A stretch of DNA of 64,000 nucleotides, from NCBI RefSeq assembly GCF_030384885.1, contig NZ_CP128613.1. One strand, given 5' to 3'. A program made the position numbers and the translations under genes. Numbering within the stretch: the first letter of the stretch is position 1; each line of letters begins with the position of its first letter. Positions 11,301 to 23,400 of this stretch are shown here, piece after piece. Origin of the DNA: Escherichia coli. Its GTDB lineage: Bacteria; Pseudomonadota; Gammaproteobacteria; Enterobacterales; Enterobacteriaceae. The notes under the pieces are model-generated. The model did not search any database. It was not told the DNA's origin and saw nothing but the letters and a program-made list of their open reading frames with translations.

Positions 11301-11452
11301 TAGTCCACTTCCGGCAGCGCCGAAACGGGCAGGGCACGATAACCGATAATCCCGGCGAGTAAGATCGCCACCATCAGCAGCGTAGTGGCGACAGGACGCA
11401 TAATAAACAGGCGCGACGGGCCGCCTGTGCTGCTCGGGGGTAACACCTGCAT
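8330..11452 (-). CDS. mdtB: RND multidrug efflux pump subunit MdtB
   Basis: 1040 aa RND-family ORF; stop overlaps the mdtA start and it abuts mdtC, typical of coupled mdtABC. Confidence 0.95.
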
Positions 11453-12699
11453 CAGGAGCGTGCTCCTTTTTTCGCGTATTCGCGGCTGGTGGCTTTCTCT
11501 TCCGAAGTGGTGGCGCTTTGAGCTTCAACCACTTCCACTTTCGCCCCTTCGGTCAGACGATCAATGCCATCCGTCACTACGCGGTCGCCTGCAGAAATAC
11601 CTGCGCGGATCACCACTTTCTGACTGTCCTGAATGCCCGGCGTCACCAGATGTTTGCTGACCTTGTTTTCGCTATTCAGCACCCAGACAAAATGGCCTTC
11701 GTTGCCCATTTGCAGGGCGGCGGTGGGGATCACCACGGCGTTTTGTTCGGTGTCGACTAACATGCGCGCGTTAACAAACTGATTGGGAAACAGCGCATCA
11801 TCCTGATTATTAAAGCGTGCTTTCACTTTAATCGTACCGGTAGTGGCATCGATTTGGTTATCGAGACTTAACAGCGTGCCTTCACTTAATTTCTTCGAGT
11901 TGGTGCGATCCCAGGCTTCAACAACCAGCGGTTTTCCGGCTTTTTGCGCCTGTACTACGGTAGCGATATCGCTTTCCGGCAGGGTAAAGAGCAAATCGAT
12001 AGGATGCGTCTGGGTGATCACCACAATCCCGGTGGTATCACCACTGGAGATTTGGTTACCAACATCAACCTGCTTGAGACCAACGCGACCATCGACTGGT
12101 GCGGTGATGCGGCTCCAGTCGAGTTGCAGCTGTGCGCTGGCGACGCTCGCTTCATCAGCCTTAATGGTACCTTCGGTTTCACTGACCAGCGCCTGTTGGG
12201 CATCCAATTCCTGACGGGAGACGAGATTGGTTTTTGCCAGTTGCTGATAACGCGCTAAATCACGGCGGGCGTTGGCTAGTGTGGCTTTATCTTTTGCCAG
12301 TTGCCCCTGAGCTTGTGCTAATGCAACTTTGAACTGGCTGGGGTCAATTTCTGCCAGTAAATCGCCTGCTTTGACCTGCTGACCCTCCTGGAAATGTAAT
12401 GCCATCAGTTGACCATCTACGCGACTGCGCACCGTAACGGTGTTAGCAGCGGTAATCGTACCAAGCCCGGTGAGGTAACGCGGAACCGCCTGTTCCACGG
12501 CAGTTGCTGCCTGAACCGGGGCCAATGGGCCGGAACGCATACCACGGCGGCCACCGGCTGGCGACTGCTGTGCTTGCTTCGTCGCACCTGGCGCTGCGCT
12601 CTGGGATTCATTGCGGCCTTGCCAGAACCAGAAAGCGGCGATGGCGGCGATAACCACCACGATTACGATTACCCAACGGGATTTATAACTGCCTTTCAT
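11452..12699 (-). CDS. mdtA: Membrane fusion (periplasmic adaptor) protein MdtA
   Basis: Track ORF 11452..12846(-) is 464 aa; start trimmed to the internal ATG at 12699 ([16 protein letters not shown]) to give the 415 aa K-12 length. HlyD/AcrA-like coiled-coil and barrel region. Confidence 0.9.
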
Positions 12700-12752
12700 C
12701 GTTAAGAGTTTCTCTTCCTGAAACGTTTCGCGGAATGATACTAGTGTAGCCA

Positions 12753-12771
12753 GCCAATAAGGGAGAAAAAT
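12753..12771 (-). promoter_or_regulatory. Candidate BaeR box upstream of mdtA
   Basis: Minus-strand sequence TTTTTCTCCCTTATTGGC about 55-70 nt upstream of the mdtA start resembles the BaeR consensus TTTTTCTCCATDATTGGC as recalled. Confidence 0.45.
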
Positions 12772-12929
12772 GGAGGAATTATGAAACACTGTCGGGAATC
12801 GTCTGAATGACGGGCACTTTTGCGAGCACGCATCCAGTAATAACACAGGAAACTATTTTATCTACGCGTTAGCGATAGACTGCATTCAGGGCAAAAGGAG
12901 GTAGGCCGACGATTTCAGCGGGACGCTGA

Positions 12930-13080
12930 AACGGGAAAGCCCCTCCCGAGGAAGGGGCCTTAAATAAGGAAAGGGTCATGATGAAGATACTCATCATCGT
13001 GGTGCTCTTAGTCGTTAGCTACCCAGCTTACTAAGACTACCAGGGCGGGGAAAACCCCGCTCTACCCTCACTCCTGAAAA
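12930..13080 (-). ncRNA. sibB: Sib-family antisense sRNA (antitoxin) fully overlapping the ibs ORF
   Basis: In K-12 each ibs is covered by a ~140-nt antisense Sib RNA. On the minus strand the hairpin GCCCCTTCCTCGGGAGGGGC followed by TTTCCCGTTT sits just upstream of the ibs start, consistent with a Sib terminator. Ends are approximate. Confidence 0.5.
12978..13034 (+). CDS. ibsB: Ibs-family type I toxin, 18 aa hydrophobic peptide (MMKILIIVVLLVVSYPAY)
   Basis: ATG ATG AAG start with SD-like AAGGAAAGGG upstream; peptide matches the Ibs pattern MMK-hydrophobic run-S-F/Y-P-A-Y. Symbol assigned only by synteny (copy nearest mdtA) and is uncertain. Confidence 0.7.
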   Translation: MMKILIIVVLLVVSYPAY

Positions 13081-13257
13081 TATGCCTTCACGGTCAGAAT
13101 GTCAATCCGCAGGCTTTGCAGTCTGCGATCCTGCCAGCAAATATTCTTTGCGAGTCGTTACGCAATAATCACAGATGAAACTATTTTATCTACGCGTTAG
13201 CGATAGACTGCATTCAGGGCGAAAGGAGGTAAGCCGATGATTTCAGCGGGACGCTGA

Positions 13258-13408
13258 AACGGGAAAGCCCCTCCCGAGGAAGGGGCCTTAAATAAGGAAA
13301 GGGTCATGATGAAGTGGATCATCATCGTGGTGCTCTTAGTCATTAGCTTACCGGCTTACTAAGACTACCAGGGCGGGGGAAACCCCGCTCAACCCTCACT
13401 CCTGAAAG
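13258..13408 (-). ncRNA. Sib-family antisense sRNA, middle copy
   Basis: Same hairpin plus T-tract arrangement as copy 1 (hairpin at 13267..13286); approximate ends. Confidence 0.45.
13306..13362 (+). CDS. Ibs-family type I toxin, 18 aa (MMKWIIIVVLLVISLPAY), middle copy
   Basis: Same architecture as the first copy within the second repeat unit; the peptide differs at a few positions. Confidence 0.65.
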   Translation: MMKWIIIVVLLVISLPAY

Positions 13409-13585
13409 TATGCCTTCACAATCAGATTGTCAATCCGCAGGCTTTGTAGTCTGCGATCCTGCCAGCAAATATTCTTTGCGAGACGTTACGCAATAATCAC
13501 ATGTGAAACTATTTTATCTGCAAGTTAGCGATAGACTGCTTGCATGGCGAAAGGAGGTAGGCCGCCGATTTCAGCGGGACGCTGA

Positions 13586-13736
13586 AACGGGAAAGCCCCT
13601 TCCGAGGAAGGGGCCTTAAATAAGGAAAGGGTCATGATGAAGCTACTCATCATCGTGGTGCTCTTAGTTATTAGCTGGCCAGCTTACTAAGACTACCAGG
13701 GCGGGGGAAACCCCGCTCTACCCTCACTCCTGAAGT
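13586..13736 (-). ncRNA. sibA: Sib-family antisense sRNA, third copy
   Basis: Hairpin GCCCCTTCCGAGGAAGGGGC at 13595..13614 with T-rich tail on the minus strand; approximate ends. Confidence 0.45.
13634..13690 (+). CDS. ibsA: Ibs-family type I toxin, 18 aa (MMKLLIIVVLLVISWPAY)
   Basis: Third repeat unit, same architecture. Symbol by synteny only (copy nearest yegL), uncertain. Confidence 0.65.
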   Translation: MMKLLIIVVLLVISWPAY

Positions 13737-13907
13737 TATGTTACTCCACCCTTATTGTCAATCTGTAAGTCCACGTTCTTGCGGGGCGAATAGCAAAACC
13801 CTCTGCGCTTATGGGCCGAATTCTGAAAGTTGCTTTGCCTGCTCTTATTTCATTATTGCAGTCGGTATGATACCGGACCTCAATAATTCTCTAAGAAAGG
13901 ATTTCTT

Positions 13908-14567
13908 ATGAGCGAACAAATCACGTTTGCCACCAGCGATTTTGCCAGTAACCCGGAACCACGTTGCCCCTGCATTTTGCTGTTGGATGTTTCTGGTTCG
14001 ATGAGTGGTAGACCTATTAATGAACTTAACGCCGGATTGGTTACCTTTCGCGATGAGCTGCTTGCCGATTCGCTGGCCTTAAAAAGAGTGGAACTCGGTA
14101 TTGTGACGTTCGGCCCGGTGCATGTGGAACAACCATTTACCAGCGCCGCTAATTTTTTCCCGCCCATCCTGTTTGCCCAGGGAGATACACCAATGGGGGC
14201 CGCCATTACCAAAGCCCTGAATATGGTTGAGGAGCGCAAACGTGAGTATCGCGCCAATGGTATTTCCTATTATCGTCCGTGGATTTTCATGATCACTGAT
14301 GGTGCACCAACCGATGAGTGGCAGGCTGCTGCCAACAAGGTGTTTCAGGGGGAAGAAGATAAGAAGTTTGCCTTCTTTTCCATCGGTGTTCAGGGGGCGG
14401 ATATGAAGACGCTGGCCCAAATCAGCGTTCGTCAGCCTTTGCCTCTTCAAGGATTACAATTCCGCGAACTGTTTAGCTGGTTATCCAGTTCGCTGCGTTC
14501 GGTTTCCCGCTCCACGCCGGGAACGGAAGTTGTACTGGAAGCGCCAAAAGGCTGGACGTCAGTGTGA
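13908..14567 (+). CDS. yegL: YegL, von Willebrand factor A (vWA) domain protein, TerY-like
   Basis: 219 aa; MIDAS motif DVSGSMSG near the N-terminus and downstream TDG; 4-bp overlap with yegK. Confidence 0.9.
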
Positions 14568-15325
14568 GCTGGCGTCTGGTCTATGCATCAGCCGTTGGAA
14601 CGTCGCACATCAGCGCTGACTTGTCTTGCCAGGATGCCTGCCAGATGCAGGTTGCCTGGCTAGAAGACCAGCAGCCATTATTGTCGGTATTTGTCGCTGA
14701 TGGCGCAGGCAGCGTCTCGCAGGGAGGCGAAGGTGCGAAGCTTGCCGTCAATGAAGCGATGGCTTATATATCGCAAAAAGTGCAGGGTGGGGAATTGGAG
14801 CTTAATGATGTCCTCGCCACGGATATTGTACTGACTATTCGTCAGCGACTTTTTGCCGAGGCAGAGGCCAAAGAATTAGCGGTTCGCGATTTTGCCTGCA
14901 CATTTCTGGGACTGATTTCATCGCCTAACGGCACATTGATTATGCAGATTGGCGATGGTGGCGTGGTCGTAGATTTGGGGCACGGTTTGCAATTGCCGCT
15001 CACGCCGATGGTGGGTGAATATGCCAACATGACGCATTTCATTACCGATGAAGATGCCGTTTCCAGACTGGAAATTTTCACCAGCACTGAGCGTGCGCAT
15101 AGAGTTGCAGCATTTACGGATGGTATTCAGAGACTGGCGTTAAATATGCTGGATAATTCTCCGCATGTGCCTTTCTTTACCCCGTTTTTCAATGGACTGG
15201 CGTCAGCAACGCAGGAACAACTCGATTTATTACCTGAATTGTTAAAGCAGTTTTTGTCCAGCCCAGCGGTAAACGAGCGTACCGATGATGATAAAACGTT
15301 AGCACTGGCTATGTGGACAGAATAA
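14564..15325 (+). CDS. yegK: YegK (PphC), PP2C-like Ser/Thr protein phosphatase
   Basis: 253 aa; PP2C-type metal-binding motifs VADGAGS and FTDG; translationally coupled to yegL. Confidence 0.88.
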
Positions 15326-20454: not shown

Positions 20455-23400
20455 TCAGTTAATCGCGAAATAACTGTTATTCACCAGCAAATCCAACGGT
20501 TGGGCATCGGCAATCACATCACCATAAATCAGATCAACGCCGATGCCAGAAAGCGTATCCATCACTAAGGGTAAAACAACTGGCCCGGCGATAGTCTTCA
20601 CCCCGAGTCGCTGAGCGTGCCCCTGAATAATCGTAATCAGCATCTCATCCATCAAATTACCCTGCACGCTGGCGCATAGCTCACCGTCAAGTAGCAGGTA
20701 ATCTGCCATATTCGCTTTCAGCGTGTTGAAAATTTGCAGATCGCGACCCACCTGGCTGAGCACTATCCGACATCCCGCCAGCCGCAGTTTTTGCACGCTT
20801 TCTGCGTGATCGAAAACCGCTTCTGCCGGAATAATCAGATGTAATAACCGTGGTGGTAGAGGGTTATTTTCCAGTTGCTCAAGCAGTTCATTCACCAGCG
20901 AGGCGCTACTCAAACCGGCAACAGAAAGGGGGAGGGCGATGCTTAAGCCTTTACTGGCAATCGCTTTTGCGGTCTGCTGGAAAAATTCATGGAGTACCCG
21001 GCGGTCAAGAGCATGGTTAAGCGCCGGATCACCGAAGCTACGACGAAATGTTTGTTCATCAACAATCTCGCCTTCGCAACCCCAGAGTTTTAGTGATATC
21101 AACCACAAATTACGCGCTTCCGGGATCCGTGGCGAAGCGACGCCGTGGGCGATCATCATCAACTGATTCTCTTTAATCATCCGCCACTGTTCATCAATCG
21201 ACATCGCCGCCCGTTCGATATGTGCGTCAGCTTGCTGCGGTTCGTAAACTGTCACCCGGCCGCGGCCACCATTTTTGGAGGCATAACAGGCGATGTCAGC
21301 CTGCGACATCACTTCAACCGCCTGATGATTGTTGTCATCAATCAAGGTAATCCCGGCACTGGCACCTACCCGATGTACACGTCCTTCCCATATAAAGTGA
21401 TAGTCATTCACGGCGCTGATAATGCGTGTAGCGATAAAACGCGCACTTTCGACATTACAATCTGGCAGCAGCAGACCAAATTCATCGCCACCGAGTCGCG
21501 CCAGCACGTCGCTGGAGCGCAGCATACTCAGCATCAATGACGCCAGTTCGCGCAACAAAGCGTCGCCAGCGGCGTGTCCGGCGCTGTCATTCACCGCTTT
21601 AAAGCGATCAAGATCGATAAACACCAGGGCATGTCGCTGATGTGTACTGTTTACCGTTTGCAGCAGGATGCGTAGTTGCTTCTCAAAACTGGCGCGATTG
21701 GCGAGATGCGTCAGTGCATCATGGGAGGCGCTGTAGCTCAGCTGCCGTAACATTTTGCGTGATTCGGTGACGTCCTGAATCACCAGAACCGAACCAATAT
21801 TGCTGCCATCCAGAGTACTTAGCGGTGTAATACTGTAATGCACGTCGTAGCTGCCGCCGCTCCGGCAGTGCAACACCACATCTTGTTCAATCGCAGAACG
21901 TGAGGTGTCGGCACTGTAAATGTTCTCCATTAATGGCCCGTTGTCGCCAAAAGTAATATGCAACACCGTCAGGAGCGGAACACCTAACGCTTCTTCCTGC
22001 GTCCAGCCGCTCATCTTCTCCGCCACCGGATTCATAAAGGTAATTTTCATTGCCATATCAATACAGACCACGGCTTCGCCGATGGAATCCAGCGTAATGT
22101 GCAGGCGCTCTTTTTCCTGAAACAATGCCTCGTTAAGCTGTTTCACTTCGGTCATATCCATATTAATGCCGAGCAGGCGTTCGACTTCGCCTTCTTTATT
22201 CAGTACCCGGTTGGCGAGGGCGCGGATATGGCGAATACCGTCTTTCACGGTAATGCGAAATTCCAGTTTAAAGGGCGAGCGTGATTGCAACGAATCGCGA
22301 ATCACTTTTTCGGCGTGTGCGCGATCTTCCGGCAATACACACTCGTACCACACCTGCCAGTTCGGTTTGATATGCGGAGGAATTTCATACAACTCAAACA
22401 TCCGCTTATCCCAACTAAAAATATTCGGCTTCAGCTCCCACTCCCAGATGCCAATCCCGCCAGCTTCGTTAGCCAGCGTGATGCGCTCCATCAGTTGCTG
22501 GTTCACCTGTTCGGTGCGTTTTAGCTCGTTAATGTCTTCAATCTGAGCGATAAAATAGAGCGGCGTACCATCGGTGTGGTGCACCAGTGAGACGGCAAGC
22601 AACGCCCAGACAACATCGCCATTGCGGTTGTAGTAGCGTTTTTCCATTGAATAGGTGTTTATTTCACCGCTGATCAGCTTTTCAACCTGTTGGAGATCTT
22701 TATTGAGATCCTCCGGCCAGGTCAGTTGCTGAAAGGTAAGTCCGCGCAGTTCTTCCTGACTGTAACCGAGAAACTGGCAGAGCGCTTTGTTGGATTGCAG
22801 CCATTGCCCCTCGGTGCCCACTAATGCCATGCCGATGGCGGAATATTCCATCGCGTTCCGAAAGCGGGTTTCGCTTTCGGAAATGTGTTTGCGTTCCGCA
22901 CGAAAGGCATACATCACCATCGTCATGATGTTGGCGGGCAGCAGGATCAGCAAAAACGGTAGCCACGGCATATGGCTCATCAGGTATGTACGCGGCGTAG
23001 CAAGCAGGGAGGGATCAGCGGCCATCATCAGTGACACCATCATCACCGTGGTAAGGAAGATCAAAAAGGCTTCCATTCGTGGCAGGCGCACGGCGCTCCA
23101 CATCAACAGCACAATAATGAAAGTAAAAGGCCACGGCAGATACAGCATCGAAAGCCAGCTTAACGTCAGTGTGATGGCTAACGTGAGCAGCGACTCAAAA
23201 AGCAACCTTGGGTTGCGATGGCGCAGCAGATAGTGTGGTTTAAATAACAATCCCAGCGGCACCAGTGCCAGGGCGCCGATGGATTCTGACAGTACCCATA
23301 TCAAAAATGCCCTGAGAGGATCGTCTCCGGGCGTCAGCAGGATAACCAGAACACCCCCTAACAGAGGTGGAACAATGGCGCTGCCGAGTGCCAGACGCAG

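Follow-up and report, generated by a model that had tools for sequence, protein, structure and literature searches.

The BaeR operator of the mdtABCD-baeSR promoter and the adjoining Sib/Ibs repeat array of variable size in Escherichia coli

The mdtA gene of Escherichia coli is preceded by a close match to the BaeR consensus and, a short distance farther upstream, by a tandem array of Sib/Ibs units. This arrangement raises the question of whether the consensus match is a genuine operator and whether the size of the array bears on BaeR-dependent induction of the efflux pump. The window analyzed here is a stretch of 64,000 nucleotides from contig NZ_CP128613.1 (assembly GCF_030384885.1), in which mdtA lies on the minus strand. 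Over the tested 1.7 kb, the window matches strain 2013C-4282 at 100% identity, and the RefSeq annotation was taken from that strain. The locus is ordinary and already known, consisting of a textbook operator and a well-described repeat family. As a whole, it is very probably explained by a BaeR operator in a compact promoter, with Sib/Ibs as a separate system and an operator context that is unaffected by copy number. The features of the promoter are as follows; mdtB is the next gene leftwards from mdtA.

11452-12699, minus strand: mdtA CDS, membrane-fusion subunit of the MdtABC efflux pump, first gene of mdtABCD-baeSR (ORF list and RefSeq annotation)
12700-12737, minus strand: mdtA leader (putative 5'UTR of ~31 nt) with the conserved GTTTCAGGAAGAGA ribosome-binding region (77-sequence stack; ChIP-exo peak_6)
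12738-12753, minus strand: conserved -10 block CTGGCTACACTAGTAT (majority conservation 0.94, 71 non-Escherichia species)
12753-12770, minus strand (mdtA-sense): the flagged 18-mer TTTTTCTCCCTTATTGGC, canonical BaeR box of the mdtA promoter (consensus match and MG1655 ChIP-exo)
12766-12787, minus strand: upstream conserved element GTTTCATAATTCCTCCATTTTT with phased CTNCA-type half-sites (cross-genus stack; mostly under ChIP-exo peak_5)
12788-12809, minus strand: block A CATTCAGACGATTCCCGACAGT, distal promoter element, moderately conserved (0.73 identity, 71 species)

The 18-mer is located 54-71 nt upstream of the mdtA ATG (12699), and the same spacing is found in MG1655. It agrees at 17 of 18 positions (one mismatch) with the BaeR consensus TTTTTCTCCATDATTGGC (Nishino et al., 2005, as quoted in PMC3799227 and PMC3915751), although this match is partly circular because the published consensus was built from the mdtA, spy, and acrD boxes. 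For the same reason, the 18-mer is the founding mdtA BaeR box and not a new "box-like" site. The mdtA box of MG1655 (2153945-2153962) has the same letters as TTTTTCTCCCTTATTGGC, and its sister boxes are TTTTTCTCCATAATTGGC in the spy promoter and TTTTTCTCCACGATTGGC in the acrD promoter of that strain. Within the 64-kb window, TTTTTCTCCCTTATTGGC is the sole consensus match with two or fewer mismatches. It lies on the sense strand in the promoter of a BaeR-regulon gene, directly upstream of the conserved -10 block. A weak match with three mismatches, ATGTTCTCCATTAATGGC at 21920-21937 (plus strand), was rejected as a second BaeR site, since it is at chance level (0.23 expected per window).

Occupancy of the box by BaeR has been published for the identical K-12 sequence. 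ChIP-exo in MG1655 gave peaks at 2153931-2153967 (peak_5) and 2153972-2153998 (peak_6) (PMC7657598 Data Set S2). When the coordinates were transferred by setting the MG1655 mdtA ATG (2154016) equal to window position 12699, peak_5 fell on 12748-12784, enclosing the box and ~14 bp upstream of it, and peak_6 fell on 12717-12743, spanning the -10 and start region. Expression depends on BaeR as well, with mdtA 16-fold down (log2 -4.0) in a K-12 baeR knockout under ethanol (PMC7657598). In other species, a plasmid-borne mdtA-lacZ fusion in Salmonella is BaeR-dependent, and Klebsiella mdtA is BaeS-controlled according to a baeS mutant (PMC13059784). Compared with the BaeR box of K-12 mdtABCD-baeSR, the window has the same downstream gene and nothing differs at the site itself, the first 100 bp upstream of the mdtA ATG being identical. 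Thus, the 18-mer at 12753-12770 (minus strand) is the established and already known BaeR operator of the mdtABCD-baeSR promoter. The earlier note had reported a consensus match on the mdtA-sense strand and called it "BaeR-box-like"; the match is real and its identity as a BaeR box holds, while the wording understates what is the founding mdtA box. That note had also named a BaeR footprint at another position as what would speak against the site; the published MG1655 peaks map onto it.

The -10 block contains two candidate hexamers, TAGTAT (12743-12738) and TACACT (12748-12743). Inspection and scanning of the promoter sequence upstream of this block gave no recognizable good -35 hexamer, as is expected of an activator-dependent promoter. 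Transcription of mdtA probably starts near 12731; the Cappable-seq and SMRT-Cappable-seq supplements contain no start-site entries for the mdtA locus. Three candidate half-sites, GTTTCATAA (12787-12779), CCTCCATTT (12776-12768), and TCTCCCTTA (12766-12758, within the 18-mer), follow one another with a phasing of 11 and 10 bp. Regulators of the OmpR/PhoB family usually bind tandem repeats, and at pho boxes the direct repeats replace the -35 element. The layout at mdtA resembles pho-box-type activation in that the half-sites are phased at 10-11 bp and end ~8-13 bp upstream of the -10 block with no recognizable -35 hexamer. It differs from other OmpR/PhoB systems in having CTNCA-type, BaeR-specific half-sites, and the geometry is deduced from sequence only. 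This layout agrees with tandem-repeat binding by OmpR/PhoB-family regulators and with the BaeR direct repeat TCTNCANAA (Yamamoto et al., 2008, as quoted in PMC3799227). A scan with the TCTNCANAA 9-mer recovered the phased matches, but its rate of 1.4 matches per 100 nt per strand at two or fewer mismatches makes it weakly discriminating, and it was rejected as standalone evidence because the motif is too degenerate. The spy and acrD promoters of E. coli are organized alike, with CTCC or TTTACAT upstream, then a T-run, and then TCTCCA..ATTGGC.

Two other candidates in the promoter region were set aside. The promoter-like sequence TTCAGA-18-CATAAT (12807-12778, minus strand), a weak match overlapping block A and the upstream element, is not favored as the mdtA promoter because of the invariant -10 block at 12738-12753. 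A 30-aa ORF overlapping the promoter (12741-12833, minus strand) was rejected as a gene; the DNA of its 5' third is not conserved across genera.

The mdtA loci of 80 species representatives were retrieved, and 77 upstream sequences were stacked ungapped, with the -10 block as the anchor. Conservation holds from the mdtA ATG as far as ~12809, beyond which it falls to background. The identities to the window among the 71 non-Escherichia sequences are as follows.

12752-12738: -10 block, 0.86
12787-12766: upstream element GTTTCATAATTCCTCCATTTTT, 0.91
12809-12788: block A, 0.73
beyond 12809: further upstream, 0.28-0.33 (background)

The 118 bp of unique DNA that separate the mdtA ATG from the repeat edge are almost entirely taken up by the conserved part (12700-12809), and, as judged from this stack, the mdtA promoter is a compact, self-contained module of ~110 bp. 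Of 5417 E. coli records, 5291 carry an identical copy of its 56-bp core (12735-12790), which is likewise conserved in 71 further Enterobacteriaceae species, including many without Sib. The 18-mer itself is unevenly conserved. Its six 5' bases (TTTTTC) have an identity of 0.94 across genera, whereas the twelve 3' bases TCCCTTATTGGC reach only 0.46 and are not conserved outside Escherichia and Citrobacter. This pattern suggests that the upstream element may be at least as important for BaeR as the flagged 18-mer, and the share of the twelve 3' bases in BaeR binding is uncertain. In a modest reading of the same data, the true conserved BaeR core at mdtA would be GTTTCATAATTCCTCCATTTTT, and the 18-mer consensus would be mis-centered by ~10 bp for regulon prediction elsewhere. 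The conservation of the upstream element, and not of the 3' two-thirds of the published 18-mer, is relevant to the prediction of BaeR regulons in Klebsiella and Enterobacter.

Block A has a genus consensus of GTCTG-N5-GTCTG on the plus strand, a 10-bp direct repeat with response-regulator geometry, and a second response regulator, either CpxR or further BaeR, may bind there. RegulonDB places mdtA under CpxR. The CpxR consensus GTAAA-N5-GTAAA has no match with two or fewer mismatches in 12700-13146, and a weaker or different CpxR site may be present at mdtA, possibly block A. The consensus scan was dropped as uninformative, the window-wide count of 73 matches against 55 +/- 8 expected being near chance.

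The most probable mode of activation starts from a ~30-bp run (12757-12787) in which half-sites recur at intervals of 10-11 bp. The 18-mer would form the promoter-proximal portion of this run, and the run would occupy the -35 position. Phosphorylated BaeR, a member of the OmpR/PhoB family, would bind the run and recruit sigma-70 RNA polymerase to the -10 block (12738-12748), thereby inducing the pump and, through autoregulation, baeSR. For the identical K-12 sequence, both the binding of BaeR and the dependence of expression on it have been shown (PMC7657598), and the class-II geometry, the assignment of TAGTAT or TACACT as the -10 hexamer, the start near 12731, and the ~31-nt leader are predictions. 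Nothing in the sequence data requires Sib/Ibs for the control of mdtA.

The array upstream of the promoter has the following features.

12818-13146, no strand: unit 1, mdtA-proximal (unit alignment, repeat family D1)
12934-13069, minus strand: unit 1 Sib antitoxin sRNA (sibB position), directed toward mdtA (transferred from MG1655 sibB, 2153646-2153781)
12978-13034, plus strand: unit 1 ibs toxin ORF MMKILIIVVLLVVSYPAY (annotated Ibs family toxin)
13147-13474, no strand: unit 2, with Sib match 13291-13433 (minus strand) and ibs 13306-13362 (plus strand) MMKWIIIVVLLVISLPAY
13475-13802, no strand: unit 3, yegL-proximal, with Sib match 13619-13761 (minus strand) and ibs 13634-13690 (plus strand) MMKLLIIVVLLVISWPAY
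13908-14567, plus strand: yegL (vWA-domain protein), far edge of the intergenic region of the array (ORF list and RefSeq annotation)

The three units form a direct repeat (D1) with a 328-bp period, the other copies being 91% and 84% identical to the first. Each contains a full-length minus-strand match to SIB_RNA (RF00113; gathering score, 56) that scores 137-139 bits (in unit 1, 12963-13105 with 137.4 bits), and an ORF for a hydrophobic Ibs peptide of 18 aa lies antisense within each match. In unit 1, a promoter-like TTGACA-17-TATTTT (13105-13077) is directed toward mdtA, and the Sib terminator consists of a strong hairpin (12936-12961; fold z = -4.4) followed by UUUCCCGUUU, a short and interrupted U-tract. 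A generic terminator scan called no terminator here, its T-run rule being stricter than the Sib terminator. The ibs gene is oriented away from mdtA, and we infer that its promoter and a long 5'UTR lie within about 12849-12977; the ibsC and ibsD mRNAs are ~160 nt (PMC2943612). For K-12 homologues, Ibs has been shown to be toxic and to be repressed by its cognate Sib (PMC2943612; PMC4147584). Sib/Ibs pairs are independent type I toxin-antitoxin genes, in which Sib has its own promoter and terminator.

The array corresponds to SibA/SibB-IbsA/IbsB (QUAD1a/1b) in the yegL-mdtA region of K-12 (Fozo et al., 2008, as cited in PMC2887945, PMC4147584, and PMC2943612), with which it has the intergenic region, orientation, unit structure, and family RF00113 in common. 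Sib/Ibs pairs are known to duplicate in tandem within a single intergenic region. The window strain differs in carrying three units upstream of mdtA where K-12 has two, and in the yegL-proximal unit, which encodes the 18-aa Ibs MMKLLIIVVLLVISWPAY in place of the 19-aa IbsA. This peptide (13634-13690; compared with L002, 2404-2463) is identical to that of the single copy of the soil isolate SC434, and the arrays of K-12, O157:H7, and a 5-copy strain all end with the 19-aa IbsA. The last-unit Ibs thus differs between lineages, indicating that arrays vary in unit type as well as in number.

A sequence resembling the CpxR consensus, GTAACGNCTCGCAAA (two mismatches), was observed in the spacers between Sib units at 13147-13161 and 13475-13489 (minus strand), a few tens of bp upstream of the putative ibs promoter region. 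The mdtA-proximal copy (12819-12833) is degenerate in E. coli and intact (GTAACGCCTCGCAAA) in Citrobacter. These CpxR-like sequences may be coincidental, as the window-wide matches are near chance.

Among the loci compared, Sib lies upstream of mdtA in the same orientation in Escherichia, Citrobacter, Pseudocitrobacter, and Kluyvera, at a nearly equal offset in the first three and a shifted one in Kluyvera. It is absent from this position in Enterobacter, Klebsiella, Raoultella, Lelliottia, Atlantibacter, Cedecea, Buttiauxella, and others. A failure of blastn to recognize diverged copies in the latter genera was ruled out by an Rfam scan of 20 representative loci, which found none. Whether or not a genus has Sib, promoter conservation ends at the same boundary. 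In Enterobacter spp. (L039, L043, L051, and L054), a REP-like element GTAGGCCGGGTAAGGCGAAGCCGCCACCCGGC adjoins the conserved promoter ~110-145 bp upstream of mdtA, the same boundary at which the Sib repeat starts in E. coli, and in other species a terminator-like hairpin takes this position.

The variation of the array was surveyed by using the flanks only (1.5 kb of mdtA/mdtB and 1.5 kb of yegL/pphC) as a query against 5426 complete E. coli genomes. In 60 records evenly spaced down the ranking, a ranking-spaced sample and no census, 1, 2, 3, 4, and 5 copies were found in 1, 24, 23, 8, and 1 records, respectively, and the flanks did not join in 3 of the 60. The interval classes of ~552-559, 880-888, 1208-1217, 1543-1544, and 1871 bp correspond to 1, 2, 3, 4, and 5 units. 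Every class was confirmed in annotated genomes, two copies being the state of K-12 and three that of the window strain and O157:H7. The mdtA side of the array is constant. The distance from the mdtA ATG to the first ibs ATG is 279-280 nt in the checked strains with 1, 2, 3, 4, and 5 copies, and on the yegL side the distance takes one of two values, 274 or 280 nt, according to which type of unit comes last. Strains with 1, 2, 3, and 4 copies are collinear over the first 350 bp upstream of mdtA, with 98% identity and without indels between K-12 and the window. A single copy of the 171-bp segment running from the mdtA start to the repeat edge (12690-12860) is present, at 95% identity or more, in 5416 of 5426 genomes. 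Most simply, units would be gained and lost internally by unequal recombination between units that are 84-91% identical. The array changes in size by whole 328-bp units with the proximal unit and the junction untouched, so that the context of the BaeR site is the same for at least 280 bp and extra units add DNA only at least 400 bp upstream. In the yegL flank of the window, pphC (PP2C serine/threonine phosphatase; 14564-15325, plus strand) is an annotated pseudogene with an internal stop and is intact in K-12.

The earlier note had proposed that the short mdtA promoter is squeezed against a strain-variable array beginning within about 80 bp of the box, and that array size could therefore modulate BaeR-dependent induction. 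Much of this description is accurate. Copy number does vary, from 1 to 5 in annotated genomes. The distance is fair for repeated DNA, since on the mdtA side the repeat sets in 48 bp from the box if the weak homology from 12818 (TTTTGCGAG) is counted and 79 bp from it if the strong homology from 12849 is taken (unit alignment). "Squeezed" is apt, the promoter module ending ~9 bp before 12818. In addition, every unit has a Sib promoter directed toward mdtA. The functional parts of unit 1 are farther away, with the mapped Sib RNA 3' end (12934, transferred from the MG1655 annotation) 164 bp from the box and the ibs ATG at 12978. The proposed effect itself is unsupported, and the fixed junction and the conservation of the promoter across genera argue against it. 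Added units are distant, each Sib has its own terminator hairpin, genera without the array have the same core promoter, and BaeR dependence has been reported in E. coli K-12, Salmonella, and Klebsiella, where the contexts differ. Since the DNA flanking the operator is fixed in population data, copy number is unlikely to matter for pump regulation, and we regard modulation by array size as highly improbable. Long-range effects through supercoiling (extra divergent or convergent promoters), summed Sib read-through, or binding of nucleoid proteins are conceivable. Weak long-range array effects, Sib read-through over the U-poor terminator, and cross-talk with the ibs promoter are each unlikely.

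A different possibility is that the proximal unit is coupled to the mdtA promoter whatever the copy number, through a shared regulator or through Sib read-through. BaeR or another regulator bound at 12757-12809 could also influence the divergent ibs promoter ~100 bp away, or read-through could supply basal transcription of mdtA. The ~150-bp divergent region between the ibs and mdtA starts contains the BaeR half-sites and the block A direct repeat, so that a conserved block stands between the two promoters; the Sib terminator has a weak U-tract; and Sib is found upstream of mdtA in the same orientation in the four genera named above. The conserved synteny is accounted for by vertical inheritance, though, and many genera keep the mdtA promoter and block A without Sib, which indicates that block A is not Sib-specific. 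Furthermore, insertions in this region are tolerated in natural E. coli variants, namely a prophage within unit 1 and an IS element at 12791. Coupling of this kind is accordingly very doubtful. If it were true, envelope-stress regulators could co-control a membrane-depolarizing toxin and an efflux pump, and Sib read-through could set the basal expression of mdtA. We likewise give little credence to the joint proposition, drawn from comparative sequence data, that the proximal unit would be a conserved partner of the BaeR promoter or, more modestly, that the 18-mer consensus is mis-centered. The weakest reading, that the 18-mer is a functionless chance resemblance, appeals to the general unreliability of short-motif matches alone and has next to no probability, being already refuted by the ChIP-exo mapping to the same position in K-12 and by conservation (a core invariant in E. 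coli and partly conserved across genera), with only ~3e-4 consensus matches of one or fewer mismatches expected by chance.

Beyond the operator, which is best read as part of a self-contained promoter with Sib/Ibs as its separate neighbor, the mdtA-yegL region is a hotspot of structural change in E. coli, with 1-5 units, IS insertions, and a prophage, and the promoter is almost never reached. The mdtA and yegL flanks are not within 2 kb of each other in 274 of 5423 records (about 5%). In E. coli 2014C-3011 (L092, 5998-7611), the DNA 344 bp upstream of mdtA holds a prophage with a tyrosine integrase and an excisionase. The match to the window breaks off at 12973, within unit 1 and just before the ibs ATG, which suggests that the sib/ibs unit is a phage attachment site. 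In E. coli WWCOL-315 (L007, 2600-2654), the IS66-family element ISCro1 is inserted at 12791/12792 and displaces the whole Sib/Ibs array; it lies ~4 bp upstream of the conserved BaeR element (12766-12787) and 21 bp from the 18-mer. This strain offers a natural comparison for judging whether induction depends on block A or the array.
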